The translations under genes were made by a program, and so were the position numbers. The notes under the pieces are model-generated. The model did no database searches and had not been told where the DNA came from. It was given only the letters and a program-made list of their open reading frames with translations. A stretch of DNA of 64,000 nt. Origin: Ostreococcus lucimarinus (taxonomy: Eukaryota). Within the stretch, counting starts at the first letter, position 1. The number at the start of each line of letters is the position of its first letter. Of this stretch, positions 25,337-35,026 are shown in pieces. Location of the stretch: the NCBI GenBank assembly GCA_000092065.1, contig CP000584.1. One strand, 5' to 3'.

Positions 25337-25401
25337 ACGTCGCTAATGATTTGTAATCTTCACATTGTACTACGTGCCGCAAGTCGGTTTCTTATCGGTG
25401 C

Positions 25402-27909
25402 CTAAACCGTCATATACTTTCGTAGAATCGCGCGCGCTAAGCCGTTTGCGTTCGAAGAACGATAGATGAGGGATAAGTTGTACGCCGCTTCGCGACGCAA
25501 ATCGTCCGCCTCGGAGCTCACCGGCATCTCCAGACAACGCTCATAAATCGGACGAGCGAGGTGCGGAAAGCCGAGATGTTGCAGGCCTCGGGCCAAGTTG
25601 TACATCCCTTCTTGTGGGCTTGTCGTGTTCAACTCCGCGGTACGTTCGAGCAGAACGACAGCTCGAAGCGCCAGTGCGTGACGCTGCTGCTCGTTTGAAT
25701 TTCTCGTTGCCATGTGCAAAAGAGAAATCGCCGCACATAAATTCACCTCGTGATCGTTCGGCGCGATCGTGAGAGCCGTGAGGAAATCGTGCATTGCTAT
25801 AGACCACTTTTTGTTCCACGTGTGAACGTACCCAGATGCCATCAAAGGTAGCAGACGTTCGCGTGAGGCATCGTCGAGGCTACTCGCGACGAGACGCTTG
25901 GCGAGCTTTGATGTTCCAACGCTGAGCGCTCGAGGATAATCGATAGCCATGTGCATCAGCATGTTCCAAACCGTTACCGAATTCGGGAATACCTCAAGAA
26001 CACTACGACAGCTTGCCGCAGACTCTTGCAAATCGCCCATCATGTACGCCACGAGCGACTTTAGGTATCGTAGCGAAGCCGTCTGCTCTCGCGTCAGCAC
26101 GCTCCCCGCGGAGAATGAAAGCGCATGATTCACGATGGTTCCCGCTTCTTCGTGTCGACCGAGCCGAATAGCGACCTCGGCACCGCTTATAATATTAGCA
26201 AACACATCATCATCTGATATCCGAACGTTATCGTCCACGAAATCATCGCTCCCCTGTCCCGCGCGTTGGAGCTTGCGTTGCGATCTTTTTTCGCTCAAGT
26301 CTTCCAAGAGCTTCAACGCAGCTGGAATGATGACAGTCAGTTCGGCTTCGCTCAAGAGCTTTCTTTGTAAAGCAGTCACGCGCAATAAAATGCCATATTT
26401 CTGTACCTCGACGTCATCTAAATTTGACACAAGTGACCTCGCCCGCCTCAACGATTCTTCGTCGTCTTGAAAACGCGAAAGCGAATCGGCTAGAGATACG
26501 GCGATGAATACGTCGCTCGGGTGCTTGTCATGGAGCATGTCGTAAAATTCGACTACCGCGCGCAAGCCCCTCGATTGCTGAACGCATCGCTCTACGCGCT
26601 GCCACATATCGACATTGTCGTACTCGTCGAGCGCGATTAAGTGCATGAACACCTCTTCCGCCTTCGACGCCAACCCAACCTCCATCAGAGTTTTTCCGCA
26701 GTCAAAGTACAAGTCATCAAACTCAGTCACCTTGTGCCGCAAGAGCTCTTCAATGCGCTCCATGCCTTCTTCCGTTTGTCCTTCGTAAAGCAAACATTGA
26801 CCTTGTTTTACGGAAATGTCCAAAGGCAGCTGTCCAGAGTCGACGTGCTCTAAAATATTCGCGCGCGAACGCTCGACAATTTCTAGTACCTCGGAATACT
26901 TGCGGAACTCAATCTTCAACTCAATCAAAATGTTCACCACTGTGGCGTCGATGTGCTGTGGATACGCTTTCAGCATGTGCTCTAGAGCATGCTCAGCCTT
27001 ATCTCGCATATCAGCACTATAATACAACTTGGCGAGCAAGACCACGGCGTCACGCAAAATAGCGCCGTCGAGCGGCGGCAAATCGTCCTTCAGCACCCAC
27101 TCAAGTTGCTCAATCGCCTTTTTCGCATCTCCAAGCTCCGAATACAACGTTGCTTGATCCATTTTATTCTCGTAATTGTGCGGGTCAGACCTCGCCGCCT
27201 TTGCTAAGCAATGTATGGCGTAATCTTTGTTGTTCACGTTTACCGCCAGCGACGCCATGCGATACCACATCGACGGGTCCACCCCACGCTTCACCGCCGT
27301 CGCCAAAGAGTAACTATCCAACGCCTTTTCTAAATCGTTCGTTTCCTCGTACACCAGCGCCAATTGCTCGTACGGTTCGCTCGAATGCGGGATTTTCACA
27401 ATCGCCGCGTGCAACTTACTCACCGCCTCGGCGTATTCGCCCCGCGCGTACAATATGGTCGCATCACTCATTAAATCGTTTGCCTCCATCGCTTGCTTCG
27501 ACCGCGCCGACTTCTTCTGTCGCCCCTTTCGCCGCCGTTTCCTACTCTCGTTCACGCCGCCCATGCGCAAAAACGCCGCCATGGTCGGGTTTCGTCGCGC
27601 CGTCGCCTCGTCGTCGTCGTCGTCACGCGCCGTACCTCCACCGCGTCCTCCCGACCCATCGCTCGTGCCCGCCAGCGTCGACCGCTCGTACGCGACGACT
27701 TTCTCCGCCAGTCTTCCCTCGCGCAGGAGCTCGAGTCCATCGAACGCTCGACCGTCGCGTTCGTTGTCGGAATCGGTTTCTTCGTCTTCGTTCGATTCTG
27801 ATTCGGATGCGTCGTCGCCGGCGCGCGCGTGGGGCTTGCCGTGCACTCGCAGACGCCTCGCGCACGAGGGCTCGTCTACATCGTCGATCGCGCGCCCGGG
27901 GAGGGACAT
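25402..27909 (-). CDS. TPR-repeat subunit of transcription factor IIIC (GTF3C3/Tfc4-like)
   Basis: First ATG ('MSLPGRAIDD') at ~27909. 'ILYARGEYAEAVSKLHAAIVKIPHSSEPYEQLALVYEETNDLEKAL' matches the GTF3C3 TPR array. Acidic N-terminus and KRRRKGRQKK basic patch as in Tfc4. Confidence 0.7.
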   Translation of the reverse strand: MSLPGRAIDDVDEPSCARRLRVHGKPHARAGDDASESESNEDEETDSDNERDGRAFDGLELLREGRLAEKVVAYERSTLAGTSDGSGGRGGGTARDDDDDEATARRNPTMAAFLRMGGVNESRKRRRKGRQKKSARSKQAMEANDLMSDATILYARGEYAEAVSKLHAAIVKIPHSSEPYEQLALVYEETNDLEKALDSYSLATAVKRGVDPSMWYRMASLAVNVNNKDYAIHCLAKAARSDPHNYENKMDQATLYSELGDAKKAIEQLEWVLKDDLPPLDGAILRDAVVLLAKLYYSADMRDKAEHALEHMLKAYPQHIDATVVNILIELKIEFRKYSEVLEIVERSRANILEHVDSGQLPLDISVKQGQCLLYEGQTEEGMERIEELLRHKVTEFDDLYFDCGKTLMEVGLASKAEEVFMHLIALDEYDNVDMWQRVERCVQQSRGLRAVVEFYDMLHDKHPSDVFIAVSLADSLSRFQDDEESLRRARSLVSNLDDVEVQKYGILLRVTALQRKLLSEAELTVIIPAALKLLEDLSEKRSQRKLQRAGQGSDDFVDDNVRISDDDVFANIISGAEVAIRLGRHEEAGTIVNHALSFSAGSVLTREQTASLRYLKSLVAYMMGDLQESAASCRSVLEVFPNSVTVWNMLMHMAIDYPRALSVGTSKLAKRLVASSLDDASRERLLPLMASGYVHTWNKKWSIAMHDFLTALTIAPNDHEVNLCAAISLLHMATRNSNEQQRHALALRAVVLLERTAELNTTSPQEGMYNLARGLQHLGFPHLARPIYERCLEMPVSSEADDLRREAAYNLSLIYRSSNANGLARAILRKYMTV

Positions 27910-28090
27910 CGCGCGCGCGCGTCGCACGATGGCGTGCGACGGTTGTCTGTGCGCCAACTGAACTCGCTCGCGTCTCGCGCCTCGTTCGACTTGACTACTT
28001 TTGCTTTTTGTGTTACACGTGGTATTTCTAATGTGTGTGTTTGAATGTCGTTTGAATGTCGTTAATCGTGTTGTTCTGATCGTCGCGCGC

Positions 28091-31000
28091 TCATCGCGCG
28101 GCGTTCAGGTAAAGTCTGTATTGCTCGCGTCGGCGCTCTTCAATTTGTTCTTGACCGCGACGACGGTACTCTTTGAGATCGCGGCACCTGGGCACGGGGC
28201 AGTCGTCCTCCATGCATCCCTTAGAATGAATTTGCAACAGCGTCCACGTTTTACGGCAGAGCTGGCACCCGCCTGCTGATTTGACCGTGCAGCTCAAGGC
28301 GTGCTTGAGCAAGTGTTTGATTTTCGGGCAGTTGCTGTTTTCGCATCGTTCTTTGCGGCATTTGCACGCGTGGAGCAAGAGTTCCATGGTTCGCTCGATC
28401 TGCGCCGCGCGGTTCTCGCGCTCGGCTTGAGACAACGCCGTGCGATCTCCGGCGGTACGACCTTGTCGCATGAGGGGGTGCTGGTGACCAGTTCTGATGC
28501 GGCAGTTGTCGCAAATATCGAAATCGGGGCACGTCTCGCAGCGCCAACCCTTTCCGGGCTCGAGCTCGCGTGAACAAACGTTGCATGATGCGACGAATGC
28601 AGGCTCAGATGGATTGTTCAAGTGATACAGCACCATCATGGTCGTATGTTTGGCGCGACGAAGCGAGTCGAACTGGAAGTGATTGCCTTGGCACAAGGAC
28701 AGGAACGCTTGACGTGTGTCAAAGAATTCGCTCTCGAGCTTTTCCTCCTCGTCCTTCTGTTCCTTCGTCAGCGTGGGAATTTCCTCACACTTTTCGCACT
28801 CGAGCTTGCGGCCAGCGTAACGTTTTTCGTTCTCTGGCATCGCATCTTCAGTCTCCTTGCATTCTTCGCAAAGCACCAAGGGTGTGCCTTCCGTCGCGTA
28901 ATAGCGGTTGGCACCGGCGATGGTTCTGCGGCAGCACAAACATTGGTGCGCAAGATGGGCGAGCATGAAGTCGTTTCTCATGTTGCTGATCGTCGTCCCG
29001 AGCTTCTTCATTAGTTCTTTATTCAGTTCAGCGTCAGCGGCGATCGTGCCACTCTTTGCCTTGGCCGCCTTGCGCGCGCTGATCTTAACCGTGGACGACT
29101 TTGTCTTCGCCTCGATGTTCTTTGCCTCCTCGAGTTCCTTCATGATGGTCGGTATCCAATCTTCCGCAATGCCGGAGAAGTAATCACCATCGAAATACGG
29201 ATACTCAGTGGCGCATCGAATATCGTGATTTTGATTGCCGAGTCGGAATTCATCGTACACGTTCGAAGTTGAAATGACGATGCCATCCTTCTGCGCCGAG
29301 CGCAACATCTTGAGGTACCACTCACGAAGCTTGTCAGCCTTTGGCGTCTTTTGCACCTTGGGGTGACAGTACAGAATGTAATCGTCTCCTTGGAACGGCG
29401 GACACGCCCAAATAAAGCACGACGTGAAGCCGCGCTGTTTGACATAGTCCAGGTACGCAATCAGAATGTTGTGATAGACGTACGTGCGCAACGCGCAGTT
29501 TTCGCCCGTGGCCACGGTGACGTTGTCCGGTCGGAAGTACTTGACAGAGTCCAAATACGAGAGGTAAATTCTTCGCCGGTTCGGTTCAGGGCACTCGTCA
29601 TCATACTCTTGCACATAAATAGCCATCAAACACACATCGGTGGCCTCAAGCTTTTGGAACAGGAGGATGACGCGCGAACGGTAAGTAAAGTGCGCCGGAA
29701 TGCCCTGTTCTTTGAAGTGGGCGTAGTAGTGCGGCTTGGTGTCCATTTGTTTGAGTGTTTGAGACACAACACGAATGGTCAAGTTCTCAGCGGTCGGGAC
29801 GTTTTCTATGGGTACGCCCAACTGCTTCGCGCGCTCCACGCGTTCCGCCGAGAGCTTCGACGCGAGGCGTTCTTCCAAAAACGTCGACATCTTTGTCTTC
29901 GGTAACGAGCTCGCCGGCTGTTGTGAAGACGGACGTTCAGCAGTAACTTGACGTTCGTTCTTATCCAACTGCGATAAGATGCAGTTTGGACACGTGAATG
30001 GCGCTTCACCGCCTTCATTGCGTCTACCGTTGAAAAGAACGCAGAGTTGGTGATACCAATCCTCGCAGTAGTCGCATTGCACCCATGGCTCCTCGAGATC
30101 GTCGTCGTTCTTCTTCTTGATGAGCGTCGCTTTCGGAAACCGTTGACCCTCGACATCGACATACCCTTGGATGGCGTTGAAGCACGGGTTACACCACGCA
30201 TCTCTTCGAGTCTCGCCCCCGAGGCTAGGCATCTGGTGGAATACTTGTCCGCGCTTGATGCGACCGACGCAACTGTAGCAGTAAAGCGGCGGTGGTTCGA
30301 ACGTCAATCGTTCAACGCCGCATGCACGGCACGAACTTTCTGTCGCGTTGATCACCGCCCGCTCAGCTTCCTTCTGAAGCTGACGAGCGCTCGGTTGACC
30401 TTGACCTTGCACCTTTTCCTTGTCGGCGAGACGCAAGGCGGCGAGATGCGTACGGATTTCTTCCGGAGTGAAGCACTCCATTAACGACGTCCCTTCGCCA
30501 CCTGGCTTGCGATCCGTTTTCAAACCGCTCGTACCCTTCACCATGAGTTGACCACGATCGAGATCGTGATCGAGCTTCATTCTCTTGTTGCCGTGCGCCA
30601 TTTGCATTTGCGCCTGTTGACGCTGCTTGAGCATGGCGTTGCGCACGGGACCGCACACCGGACACCCAGCGTCCTTGCACGTCTGATGATGCTTCAACAA
30701 CTCACGCGACGCCAAACATCGAGGATAGTTGCACTGCGTCAGCGTACACTTCAACACGTGCTCCCACAACTGCTTCGCGACGTGACAGTGCGGCGTGTAG
30801 GGGCAGTGCCCGTGTCGCGCCTGACACTTGCTCGCGTGTCGAAGGAAGAGAAGCCATCGTTGCTGTTTCACGATGTACGCCTTTCGTAACTGCTCGTCAT
30901 TGATGTCTCGCCAATTAGCAACGACACCACCCCCACCACTACCCGGTTGCTGGCGCCCGCGCATCGCCGCCTGTTGCTGTTGGGCCATCTGTTGCTGTTG

Positions 31001-31677
31001 CGCGAGCTGCTTCGCCTGCGCCGCCTGCTGCGCCTTGGTGAGCTTTTTACCCTTCGGCGGCGCCTTAGCTCGTCCCTTGGGCGCCGCCGCCGTCGCTGCC
31101 TCAGGCATCATCGAACCCACACCCTGCGTCGGAATCATCGTCCCAGGTGGCACGCCGGCCATCATTTGCGAAGATCCTCCCGCGTATTGCGATCCTTGCG
31201 CCGCCGCCGCGCCGCGCAAAATCGGCGCCCCATTCGGTAACATACCGTTACCCCCCATCATCTGTCCCGCCGCGGGTTGCGCCATATTCCCCCCTAATCC
31301 CCCTGGGAACAACGCTCCCATCTGCTGACGCGAAGCCGCCGCAGCGCTCCCGCCTCCTCTTCCGCCCTGTTGCGCGCCTTGACGAGAAATCATGATGCGC
31401 GCGACGGCTTGAAGTCGCGCCTCCAACGTCGCCTTGTCGCAATACTCATCCTACGATCGCAAAAACACCCCCACAATCCAACCGTCAGTCCTCGAACGTC
31501 ATCACCCGCGCGCGCGCGCGCCTCAACCGCCTCGTTCGTCGCGCGCGCCGATCGAAACCGCGCACCTTGCTCCGCGCTCCGCGATACACCGCCTCCTCCA
31601 ATCGCAGCACAAAGTCCGGTAGCTTGTGTTTCCACTCGTTCGTCAATTCCGGTTTCCTTTGTTTAAACACTCGCAAT
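28091..31677 (-). CDS. CBP/p300-type histone acetyltransferase (main exon 28091-31450; upstream KIX exon 31566-31677; further 5' exons likely)
   Basis: HAT/KAT11 core ('KKNDDDLEEPWVQCDYCEDWYHQLC', 'YLSYLDSVKYF'). ZZ and TAZ2 zinc fingers ('LLHACKCRKERCENSNCPKIKHLLKHALSC'). Upstream exon encodes the KIX helix '...NEWKHKLPDFVLRLEEAVYRGARSK', which splices (GTGCGCGG...GGACTGACGG...CGTAG) onto 'DEYCDKATLEARLQAV'. Confidence 0.85.
31451..31565 (-). other. spliceosomal intron (GT-AG, 115 nt) within KIX-coding region of the CBP gene
   Basis: Donor GTGCGCGG after codon AAG (31566-31568). Branch motif GAGGACTGACGG. Acceptor CGATCGTAG in phase 0 before GATGAG at 31450. Confidence 0.6.
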
Positions 31678-32233
31678 CTGCGCACCGTTCGCGCGTCCAC
31701 GCCGTCGTCAGTCGTCCCTTCGCCTGAGCGCGCGTTCGCGCGCGTCTTCGCGACCTAAGCCTCGTCCGCGAGATCCGCGTTCGCGCCTCCCCCCCCCGCG
31801 TCGCCTCGCGCGCCGTTCGCCTTCGCGACGCACATGTGTTGAATCAGAATCTTCCTCTGCGGGATGTCGTCGTCCGATTGCCACGTGCGCCACGAGTGCT
31901 TCGCCCCCCCGCCGTCGCTCGCGCCGTTCGCGCCCGGCATTCGAACGCCCCGCGCCTTGTGCGGATTGACCTCGACCGACCGCGGTCGCGCGTGTGGGCA
32001 AACAGTCACGCGCGATCGTCGTCGCGCGTCCCGCGGGTCGCGATCGCGCGGCGCGCGCGCGTCGTCGCGCGTCCCGCGACCGCGCGTCGGCCCGTCGCGA
32101 TCGCGCGCGCGATGCGGCACGCGTTCGGCCGGCGCGCGCGCGCTCGCTCGAGGGCGTCGAGCGTCGCTCGCCGCTCTGACGCGGCGCGATCGCAGACGCG
32201 CGGGATTCGCGCGCGCGAATAGGGTCTAGGGCG

Positions 32234-33679
32234 ATGGCGCGCCGAACGCGACCGACCGAATGCGAATCGACGCGCGCACACGACGACGCGCGGCGCGCGC
32301 GCGACGCGCGACGACCGAGGGTCCGAGCGACGCTTTCGAGCGACGCGCGGCGCGCGCGCGACGCGCGACGGCGACGCGCGGCGATGGCGCGCGCGATGAC
32401 GACGCGGGGCGCGGTGGCGACGGGGCTCGACGGACGCCGCGGCGACGCGAAGACGCGCGCGCGTCGGCGCGGGGGGGGGCGAACGGCGACCGCGCGAGGC
32501 GGGACGGACGCGCGGACGCGCGAGGGGGCGGGAGGGACGCGGGCGCGAGGTTGGGAGGGGACGCGCGCGAGCGCGCGGGACGCGCGGACGGGCGAGGACG
32601 CGGCGCGACGGGCGAGGACGCGGGCGGTGATCGGGGCGCGCGAGCGGTGGGGCGATGGCGCGCGCGGGCGAGGGTGGGGCGCGCGCGTCGAGAGCGCGGC
32701 GTCGGACGCCGCGGTGGGCGAGGGCGAGCGAAAGCCGACGAAGGGGAAGGGGGTGTCGAATTTGTTGAAGCGAACCGTGAGCTCTCTCTTCATGGTCGCC
32801 GTGGGCGGGGTGGTGATCTTCGCCGGTGGGTGGCCATGGGCGCTGGCGATGGCGCTCTTCAACGGCGCGTCGTGCGTGGAATACTTTGGAATGGTGCGAG
32901 AGATGAATAAGGAGCTTCCGTATCCGCCGCCGGAGTGGTGCATTAATTTATGCGTCGCGGCGTGCGCTTCGTTACCAGTTCTCCTGCACGCCACGGGGGG
33001 TAAGATGACGTCCATCATCGTCGCCACGGTGATTTCGTTCACCGCGATCTGCGCCGCGCTCATCGTGAACGAAGAGTCCCACTTTAACGAGTTTACGTCG
33101 TCTCTGTTTGGCTTGATTTATTGCGGCTTCTTGCCGACGTTTTGGGTCAAGCTTCGCGGCATGAGCGGCGTCTCGCTAGCCACTCCGGACAGTTTGCTTC
33201 ATCACTGGCCCGCTTGGCTCGGTGGTCCGGGGATTTGGACCCTCGGCCTCGCGGCGACGATCACCATCGTGCTCTCCGTCGTGAGCGCGGACGTCGGGGC
33301 GTACGCGTTTGGCAAAAACTTTGGTAAAAACAAACTCACGGCGGTAAGCCCGAATAAGACGGTCGAAGGCGCGATCGGCGGGTTGTTGGCTTGCGCGGGG
33401 ACGTGCGCGGCTTTGTTTTCAGTCATGGGGTGGCCTGGAACCGCGTGGCAAGGCGCGTTTTTGGGCGTCACGGTGTTCTTCACCTCCGTCTTTGGCGATC
33501 TCCTCGAGAGCGTGATGAAGAGAAATGCGACGATGAAGGACAGTGGGAATCTGATTCCGGGTCACGGCGGCTTGCTCGATCGATTTGATTCGTACATTTT
33601 CACCGGGAGTGTGACGTACTTCTTTGTCATCGCCGTCCTCGGCGGTTTCCGAAGAGTCTTTTCGGTTGGATATTACTAA
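32234..33679 (+). CDS. phosphatidate cytidylyltransferase (CDP-diacylglycerol synthase)
   Basis: Signature 'GHGGLLDRFDS' plus multiple TM helices ('LFMVAVGGVVIFAGGWPWALAMALFNG'). ATG at 32234 opens a ~170-aa Arg/Ala/Gly low-complexity N-terminus, so the true start is uncertain. This region may instead hold 5' exons of the antisense CBP gene. Confidence 0.7.
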   Translation: MARRTRPTECESTRAHDDARRARDARRPRVRATLSSDARRARDARRRRAAMARAMTTRGAVATGLDGRRGDAKTRARRRGGGRTATARGGTDARTREGAGGTRARGWEGTRASARDARTGEDAARRARTRAVIGARERWGDGARGRGWGARVESAASDAAVGEGERKPTKGKGVSNLLKRTVSSLFMVAVGGVVIFAGGWPWALAMALFNGASCVEYFGMVREMNKELPYPPPEWCINLCVAACASLPVLLHATGGKMTSIIVATVISFTAICAALIVNEESHFNEFTSSLFGLIYCGFLPTFWVKLRGMSGVSLATPDSLLHHWPAWLGGPGIWTLGLAATITIVLSVVSADVGAYAFGKNFGKNKLTAVSPNKTVEGAIGGLLACAGTCAALFSVMGWPGTAWQGAFLGVTVFFTSVFGDLLESVMKRNATMKDSGNLIPGHGGLLDRFDSYIFTGSVTYFFVIAVLGGFRRVFSVGYY

Positions 33680-33811
33680 AGCGCGGCAAATACATCAAAT
33701 ACATCATCCATGGCGGCGTCCGTCGCGCCCGTCGCGAAGATGTCACACATCTAGACTCGTACTAATAACCCTATTGTAGTTGTAACATCCGACTAATAAC
33801 GAAAAGGACTT

Positions 33812-34564
33812 CTATCCCTTTCGCGGCGTCGCCTCGATGACAAACGTGGTGCCGAGATGGTGCGTCGATTTTTCCACAATTTCCAACCCCGCGTCTTCGA
33901 TTAGCTTCAAAATGTCCCTATTCCAGTAACATCCCCATCGTCGCGCGTGTGCATCGGCGAAATGATCCAGAATATTACTCAACCAGCCGTACTCGCTTCG
34001 TCCGTGCTCGAGCAACAACACCCGACCGCCGTCTCGCTTAACGACGCGCTTCATCTCTCGCAACGCCCCCACCGCGTCCTCGTAACTGCACAACCCAAAC
34101 GTATCCACCACGGTATCCACGCTTCCCGTCTTCACATTCATCCTTTGCGCGTCTCCTCGCGTCACGATCGCCTCTCGCACCGTCGTCCCGCCGTCGCGCG
34201 TCCGCAGCTTCGCGCGCGCCTCCTCCACCATCCCATCGCACGCGTCCATCGCCAGCAGCGTGCGCACTTTTTTCGGGTCATAATACGAAAAGTTCCTTCC
34301 CGTACCGCACGCCACCTCCAACACGTCGCCGCGGGCGCCGTACGCGAGCGACGCGCGCATGTTTTCGATGCCGGACCAGTATTCACTGGACCTCACGGCG
34401 TCGTCAAAGGTTTTCGCCTCGCGATCGTACGCCGCGTCGCGCGCGCGCGCGTCGACGCGCTCGCAATCGCACGCGCGTCCACCGAGCGCGGCACCGTAGC
34501 CGACGACGACGCCCGCGCACGCGACGCCGGTCGCGAACGCGGAGGCGACGAGGCGAGGAAACAT
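33812..34564 (-). CDS. class I SAM-dependent methyltransferase (Methyltransf_11-type)
   Basis: First ATG 'MFPRLVASAFATGV' (hydrophobic N-terminus). SAM-binding 'VLEVACGTGRNFSYY' and 'VDTVVDTFGLCSYED...GGRVLLLEHGRS'. The ORF-track start is TTG. Confidence 0.7.
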   Translation of the reverse strand: MFPRLVASAFATGVACAGVVVGYGAALGGRACDCERVDARARDAAYDREAKTFDDAVRSSEYWSGIENMRASLAYGARGDVLEVACGTGRNFSYYDPKKVRTLLAMDACDGMVEEARAKLRTRDGGTTVREAIVTRGDAQRMNVKTGSVDTVVDTFGLCSYEDAVGALREMKRVVKRDGGRVLLLEHGRSEYGWLSNILDHFADAHARRWGCYWNRDILKLIEDAGLEIVEKSTHHLGTTFVIEATPRKG

Positions 34565-35026
34565 CCGCGCGACGACGTGTGACGCCAGAGCGCCGCGCGG
34601 CGTCGACGCGACGACGCGCGACGACGCGCGACGACGCGCGACGACGCGCGACGCGCGATGTCGCGCAAGCGACCGCGCGCGACGCGCGATACGAGCGACG
34701 ACGACGCGCATCTCTCGACGGTGGTTCAAAAATCATCTTTGCAAACGGCGCGCGCGACGACGCGAAACGGCGCGAAGCGGGCGCGACGAGACGCGACGGG
34801 ACGAAAAGTGCGCGCGCGGGGGAAGTCGTCGACGGCGCCGTTGGCGCTGGCGGTGACGCACGATCGCGTGCGGACGCTGGAGGTGCGATGATTAGACGAT
34901 TGGGATGGGCGTTCGAGGCGACGGCGGCGCGCGGGTGCCCGGTTTGACGCGAGAGAACGCGCGCGCGCGAAGAGACTGACGAAGGCGCGCTGGCGTCGAG
35001 ATCGCGGACAGGAGCTAGTGGAGGAG

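Follow-up and report, generated by a model that had tools for sequence, protein, structure and literature searches.

Two genes lie head to head in the stretch of Ostreococcus lucimarinus DNA analysed here (64,000 nt of contig CP000584.1, assembly GCA_000092065.1; hereafter the window). On the minus strand, a main open reading frame (ORF) carries the hallmarks of a CBP/p300-type acetyltransferase, and on the plus strand, a divergent ORF encodes the cytidylyltransferase domain of CdsA. The question raised by this locus is where the acetyltransferase gene, called HAC below, begins. A preliminary description had expected one or more further coding exons, with the TAZ1 domain and the initiator Met, at 31900-32700 on the minus strand, overlapping the CdsA ORF, so that one of the two gene models would have to be wrong. 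In this study, we consider it very likely that the locus holds a three-exon HAC-like gene that starts at ATG 31940 and encodes its KIX domain first, that the divergent CdsA gene starts most likely at ATG 32384, and that the two genes do not collide.

Exon structure and start codon of HAC

The main ORF is preceded by two small exons, and the features of the locus are collected in Table 1. Splicing of 31940-31834, 31677-31566, and 31450-28091 on the minus strand is in frame and gives a protein of 1192 aa. Exon 1 codes for MPGANGASDGGGAKHSWRTWQSDDDIPQRKILIQH and 2 nt of the Ile-36 codon, and its coding sequence includes WQSDDDIPQRKILIQH and ...WRTWQSDDDIPQRKILIQH; an upstream exon of this kind had been predicted at around 31800-31900, where it was found. 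Exon 2 and the intron that follows it had already been placed correctly to the base. The intron 1 acceptor that had been pointed out, GGTGCGCAG, whose last base is 31678, is present together with its branch motif, ACTGAC at 31712-31707. Both introns fit the pattern GTGCG...ACTGAC...YAG, with the branch A at 30 nt from the 3' splice site in intron 1 and at 34 nt in intron 2, and an in-frame stop (TAG at about 31755) lies inside intron 1.

The start codon, ATG 31940, sits 16 codons ahead of the KIX core. It is the first minus-strand ATG below 32793, a gap of 853 nt without ATG, and position 32793 is already within the conserved CdsA core. Therefore, any HAC transcript initiated within the intergenic spacer has ATG 31940 as its first AUG. 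The gene is a plant-type histone acetyltransferase gene of the CBP/p300 kind; its coding sequence is divided into three exons and translated from this ATG into a product with the order KIX, Gly/Gln-rich linker, TAZ1, PHD, KAT11 HAT, ZZ, and TAZ2, without a bromodomain.

Table 1. Features of the HAC-CdsA locus, with identity to the corresponding sequence of the related locus L009
Feature	Position	Strand	Content	Identity to L009	Differences from L009
Main ORF	28091-31426	minus	1111 codons, CBP/p300-type acetyltransferase hallmarks		
HAC exon 1, 107 nt	31834-31940	minus	opens with ATG 31940; in frame; donor AT/GTGCGT; KIX start	93.5%	no indels; KIX-part changes synonymous
HAC intron 1, 156 nt, phase 2	31678-31833	minus	GTGCGT ... 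ACTGAC ... CAG	68%	indels of 1-2 nt
HAC exon 2, 112 nt	31566-31677	minus	(I)LRVFKQRKPELTNEWKHKLPDFVLRLEEAVYRGARSK; KIX helix 1 end, loop, helix 2	98.2%	no indels; two synonymous changes
HAC intron 2, 115 nt, phase 0	31451-31565	minus	GTGCGC ... ACTGAC ... TAG	93.9%	no indels
HAC exon 3, 3360 nt including stop	28091-31450	minus	KIX helix 3, Gly/Gln-rich linker, TAZ1, PHD, KAT11, ZZ, TAZ2		
KIX-coding span (residues about 17-95)	31385-31892	minus	broken by both introns		
TAZ1	30653-30865	minus	Pfam zf-TAZ, downstream of KIX		
PHD	29981-30103	minus	Pfam		
KAT11 HAT	29174-29803	minus	Pfam		
ZZ	28478-28594	minus	Pfam; single ZZ detected		
TAZ2	about 28157-28387	minus	second zf-TAZ stretch		
CG-rich spacer	31941-32383		78% GC, between the divergent start codons; no HAC coding potential found		
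Divergent CdsA ORF, 481 codons	32234-33679	plus	cytidylyltransferase domain		
First 50 codons of the CdsA ORF	32234-32383	plus		56%	indels of 5, 4, 1, and 7 nt
CdsA coding sequence, most likely 431 aa	32384-33679	plus	presequence and conserved membrane core		
CdsA presequence	32384-32713	plus		76%	indels of 3, 15, and 9 nt
CdsA conserved membrane core	32714-33679	plus		94%	one 6-nt indel

KIX and the other domains of the HAC protein

In the spliced protein, Pfam recognised KIX_2 (residues 19-81), zf-TAZ (269-339), PHD (523-563), HAT_KAT11 (623-832), ZZ (1026-1064), and a second TAZ, in this order. The HAT_KAT11 match (PF08214) had an E-value of 4.5e-33, and zf-TAZ matched with E 6.6e-27 in two stretches, the best at 269-339 and the second at about 1095-1171. 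There was no Pfam match to the bromodomain (PF00439) in the 1192-aa protein. By homology, transcription factors would bind to the KIX domain and the TAZ fingers, and histones would be acetylated by KAT11; acetyltransferase activity and coactivator function are thus predicted for the HAC product.

That the gene is of the CBP/p300 type and that its KIX domain is split had been recognised before, and both points are supported, with the domain divided over the two small exons and the start of the main exon. On the isolated N-terminus, KIX_2 (PF16987) matched residues 19-81 with E 3.7e-5. A profile alignment of eleven green-lineage N-termini (A2) was then compared with PDB, and the nine best matches were all KIX domains. 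The E-values were 1.5e-4 for MED15a, 0.0027-0.0081 for CBP, and 0.0099 for p300; a CBP-KIX/ferritin fusion and two yeast MED15/Gal11 KIX chains were matched at E 0.03-0.06. In an hhalign comparison with the CBP KIX domain (E 0.002), ARSKDEYCD was paired with ANSRDEYYH of CBP, the same alignment that had been proposed for the start of the main exon. With a narrower profile (A1), histone H2B was matched as weakly as KIX; this was judged to be low-complexity noise, and the broader A2 profile resolved the ambiguity.

For the structure, the orthologue P0006 was modelled. AlphaFold gave a model of three helices with a pLDDT of 70, and the fold searches were compatible with KIX, not discriminating. 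Read from this model, the junction between exons 2 and 3 would fall in the loop just ahead of KIX helix 3. This is a small correction to the earlier description, in which the main exon started in the middle of this helix.

Conservation of the HAC structure in relatives

The closest full-length homologue, P0006 (60% identity, 99% coverage), is encoded on the 4230-nt contig L001. It runs MAQNQTDANKKQAGWRTWQSDEDIPQRKVLIQHILRLFQQRKPSVTKEWQQKLPDFVLRLEEAVYRGARTKEEYCDKDTLEARLQ unbroken and so crosses both proposed junctions, with ...IPQRKVLIQHILRLFQQRKP...GARTKEEYCDKDTLEARLQ as the junction-spanning stretches. This continuity argument does not depend on L001 being an mRNA; an intron-less genomic copy would serve equally well. 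In P0006, 14 residues precede the conserved Trp at which the KIX domain opens, and the ATG follows an AT-rich leader ending in TAA. The N-terminus was also colinear in P0011 (labelled, like P0006, 'E1A/CREB-binding protein' by JGI), in the transcript-derived MMETSP proteins P0013 and P0073 (the P0073 cluster includes Prasinococcus capsulatus), and in Apatococcus P0099. In P0006, P0011, P0013, and P0073, it consists of M, a short leader, W-x-T/S-W-Q/H..., and KIX, and the remainder of these proteins is colinear as well (37-60% identity, 99% coverage).

Four related species (loci L003, L005/6, L007, and L009) were compared at the DNA level, and both introns recurred in five related genomes. The three exons and the positions and phases of both introns were common to all four, with canonical GT..CTRAY..AG signals: the donors were GTAAGT, GTACGT, or GTGCGT, the branch was CTGAC or CTAAC, and the acceptors were YAG. 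Intron 2 measured 115-147 nt in these relatives. The ATG was also kept in all four, 16-28 codons before the conserved Trp, and an in-frame stop was found just upstream of it in L003, L005, and L009, the relatives with enough sequence. The 37 residues of exon 2 were 100% identical in the L005/L006 protein. Against the close relative L009, intron 2 was nearly exon-like in its conservation, unlike intron 1 (Table 1).

The public gene calls offer another reading, in which the acetyltransferase starts from Met 31285 and the ORFs upstream of it, which begin at 31940 and about 31685, represent small genes of their own or noise. On contig L002, which is 100% identical to the window, the gene was indeed called automatically as three separate ORFs of 61, 66, and 1064 aa (window 31285-31940 corresponds to L002 5346-6001), and the 61-aa call starts at the equivalent of ATG 31940. 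However, the ORF finder behind these calls takes no account of introns. The three pieces fuse in frame through canonical introns, they match a single continuous conserved KIX domain in P0006, P0013, P0073, and P0099, and the pattern of exon and intron conservation agrees with splicing. We hardly believe, therefore, in three unconnected ORFs, and the single three-exon gene is preferred. The closest public calls, P0001-P0005, are truncated, intron-started, or intron-reading because the gene finders are blind to introns: P0001 (1064 aa) uses the internal Met 31285 and is without KIX, P0002 starts inside intron 2, and P0004 reads through intron 2 in frame. As a result, KIX is missing from the records P0001-P0005.

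The region upstream of ATG 31940

In animal CBP/p300, TAZ1 precedes KIX, and an upstream TAZ1 had been expected because this animal domain order was assumed. The idea of more coding exons upstream draws further on the minus-strand frame, which stays open for about 97 codons above ATG 31940, and on a 451-aa antisense ORF that spans the region. However, the minus strand is free of ATG from 32793 down to 31940. In each of its three frames, the interval 31941-32800 codes for only 1-3 Cys and 3-10 His in 286 residues, compared with 9 Cys and 8 His in the 73 residues of TAZ1, and a Pfam search of these frames gave no match at E<=10. TAZ1 is already encoded downstream of KIX (residues 269-339). All green-lineage homologues inspected, the transcript-derived MMETSP proteins among them, are KIX-first, and the comparison of orthologous gene structures gave a conserved ATG with in-frame stops just above it in L003, L005, and L009. 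The long open frames are what is expected by chance at 78-84% GC. Coding exons with TAZ1 and an initiator Met at 31900-32700 are thus extremely improbable, and ATG 31940 in exon 1 is kept as the start.

The antisense ORF itself (451 codons, 31708-33063, minus strand) lies over the CdsA presequence and part of the CdsA core and has no Pfam match. It looks like an artefact of the 78-84% GC content; spurious long ORFs are common in the CG-rich stretches of the window. The GC content of the sequence is 59%.

The start codons ATG 31940 and ATG 32384 are 443 nt apart (293 nt if ATG 32234 is used for CdsA), and neither version of CdsA overlaps the HAC coding sequence, so the supposed collision of the two models falls away. 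In L009, the equivalent spacing is about 445 nt (CdsA ATG 3001 to 2555, the start of the ORF called over HAC exon 1); the spacing to the automatic CdsA call start is about 660 nt in L003 and about 510 nt in L005. The part of the spacer at 31941-32233 is 79% identical to L009, with 1-nt indels. The spacer presumably comprises both 5' untranslated regions (UTRs) and a shared bidirectional promoter, and the transcription start sites would fall within it.

The HAC mRNA might instead reach further upstream, through an extended 5' UTR or an added non-coding leader exon, and so run antisense to the first part of the CdsA transcript; both coding models would be unchanged. The spacer is short, and the 853-nt ATG-free stretch would permit a long leader without upstream AUGs. 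No observation requires such an antisense leader, no conserved splice-like leader exon was found, and between the genes L009 is only 79% identical and differs by indels. We consider this arrangement improbable.

We also speculated that the spacer, with its palindromes and direct repeat, might be a compact bidirectional promoter that co-regulates a chromatin acetyltransferase with an enzyme of lipid synthesis, and that the well-conserved intron 2 might carry a regulatory element. The pairing of the two genes is syntenic in at least four picoalgal species. Taken together, these two proposals are doubtful.

CG-rich palindromes are located in the spacer at 32009-32050 and 32098-32146. An Rfam search of the introns and the spacer gave only sub-threshold matches at palindromes, to mir-m107-1 on both strands with about 22-24 bits against a cut-off of 83 bits. 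It is almost certain that the palindromes do not represent RNAs; a role as promoter elements is possible. When the intron sequences were compared with the rest of the window for 'introner'-type repeats, only short CG-rich matches were obtained. A scan for bacterial promoters and terminators gave nothing, and it is not applicable to a eukaryotic sequence.

The start of CdsA

The CdsA ORF matched CTP_transf_1 (PF01148) with E 1.3e-55 at residues 179-465 of 481, covering profile positions 2-261 of 264. The match to NCBIfam PRK11624 was partial and reached 96 bits against an equivalog cut-off of 385; therefore, this CdsA is not the E. coli-type equivalog. Conservation among the CdsA orthologues begins at about residue 160 of the ORF. 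Upstream of the conserved part, the only in-frame ATGs are 32234, 32384, and 32396, those at 32260 and 32655 being out of frame, so that at least 105 codons of Arg-rich extension are translated, barring an unseen intron.

The comparison with L009 separates this extension into two parts. The first 50 codons (32234-32383) appear to behave like non-coding DNA: the identity is lowest here, the indels break the frame, and L009 has ACC in place of ATG 32234. They also contain a perfect 30-nt direct repeat (32284-32313 and 32341-32370, 57 nt apart), of a type found in the intergenic DNA of the window, which yields a doubled 'DARRARDARR' in the conceptual translation. The next approximately 110 codons behave like a fast-evolving coding presequence, with indels of 3, 15, and 9 nt. 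The preliminary description had called a 170-aa Arg-rich N-terminus of CdsA implausible; this judgement holds for the first 50 codons, and the following 110 or so are coding-like. Around 32384, the block GGCGGCGATGGCGCGCGCGATGACGACGC is identical in the window and L009, and the close relatives P0122 and P0123 (89-96% identity) begin with MARAMTT/MTT, the equivalents of M51 and M54.

It is on these grounds that we believe CdsA to start most probably at ATG 32384, and that the 481-aa ORF model is probably too long by 150 nt. Translation from ATG 32234 would give 481 aa with an Arg-rich extension of about 175 aa. The ORF is open from there, the public calls of P0121 and L002 begin at this ATG, and long CdsA forms of 481-526 aa occur in other relatives. 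In addition to the loss of this ATG in L009, the frame-breaking indels at only 56% identity, the direct repeat, and the starts of the close relatives, the spacing argues against it, since the spacer measured from ATG 32384 agrees in length with that of L009 (443 vs. about 445 nt). The longer form is unlikely, and ATG 32384 remains the preferred start.

CdsA is a CDP-diacylglycerol synthase, most likely with a rapidly evolving N-terminal presequence of about 110 aa, rich in Arg, Ala, and Gly and with 84% GC. This presequence is plausibly an organelle-targeting peptide. Indirect support comes from the in-frame indels and from an Arg/Ala-rich extension that occurs, without conservation of its sequence, in all relatives and in the transcript-derived homologues. 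In the CTP_transf_1 CDP-diacylglycerol synthases of green algae known from transcriptomes, the N-terminus is likewise extended by 105-150 non-conserved aa, and across the CdsA orthologues and the transcript-derived homologues the extension measures 105-175 aa. Unlike that of these synthases, the presequence in the window is extremely Arg/Gly/Ala-rich. The plastid CDS4/CDS5 of plants are presumably an analogous case of an extended CdsA.

Several points weigh against the model of the two genes given here. When JGI metagenome and metatranscriptome contigs were scanned for exact matches to the spliced exon 1/2 and exon 2/3 junctions, none was found. Contig L001, which encodes P0006, may represent genomic DNA without introns and not an mRNA. 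The KIX_2 match reached 24.0 bits, just below the Pfam gathering score of 25.6 bits; under-detection of KIX by Pfam and InterPro is known (PMC5668377). With regard to CdsA, the indel argument comes from a single pairwise alignment of low-complexity sequence with 84% GC, and P0121, a variant with 98% identity, retains the longer form of 481 aa.

Comparison with known acetyltransferases and annotation of the locus

The window gene is of an ordinary, already-known kind, a green-lineage CBP/p300-type (plant HAC) acetyltransferase. The Arabidopsis proteins HAC1, HAC5, and HAC12 have the identical domain set and order, from an N-terminal KIX, followed by a long low-complexity linker, to a C-terminal TAZ2 and without a bromodomain, and KIX has been documented in all three (PMC5668377). 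Land-plant HAC1 and HAC12 showed 46-48% identity to the window protein over 67% of its length. Compared with the plant proteins of about 1650-1850 aa, the window protein is shorter (1192 aa) because its KIX-TAZ1 linker has only about 170 aa; it also has one ZZ in Pfam, and its KIX lies 16 residues from the N-terminus. In all green-lineage homologues inspected, KIX was located 12-60 residues from the N-terminus, and TAZ1 followed after a Gln/Gly-rich linker. The stramenopile matches carry the bromodomain PF00439, whereas the green-lineage homologues are without it.

Animal CBP/p300 shares KAT11, PHD, ZZ, and two TAZ fingers with the window protein, and its KIX helix 2/3 region aligns with the window KIX. 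Unlike animal CBP/p300, the window protein has KIX followed by TAZ1 and is without the bromodomain, NRID, and IBiD. The locus is thus a case in which the animal domain order, applied to a gene of the green lineage, produces an apparent conflict where there is none.

The value of these results lies in annotation. The three-exon model restores the full KIX-TAZ1-PHD-KAT11-ZZ-TAZ2 protein, and the CdsA start is probably shifted by 150 nt. This is a refinement of annotation and not new biology, and no open biological question hangs on the outcome.

The order of the genes around HAC and CdsA is conserved: TERT, a methyltransferase, CdsA, HAC, a TPR protein, a small ORF, and a BEACH-domain protein follow each other at about 25400-35000 of the window and in the loci L002, L003, L005, and L009. 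The TPR-repeat ORF downstream of HAC (25402-27957, minus strand) is listed from a TTG with 851 aa, and the public call on the identical contig has 814 aa.

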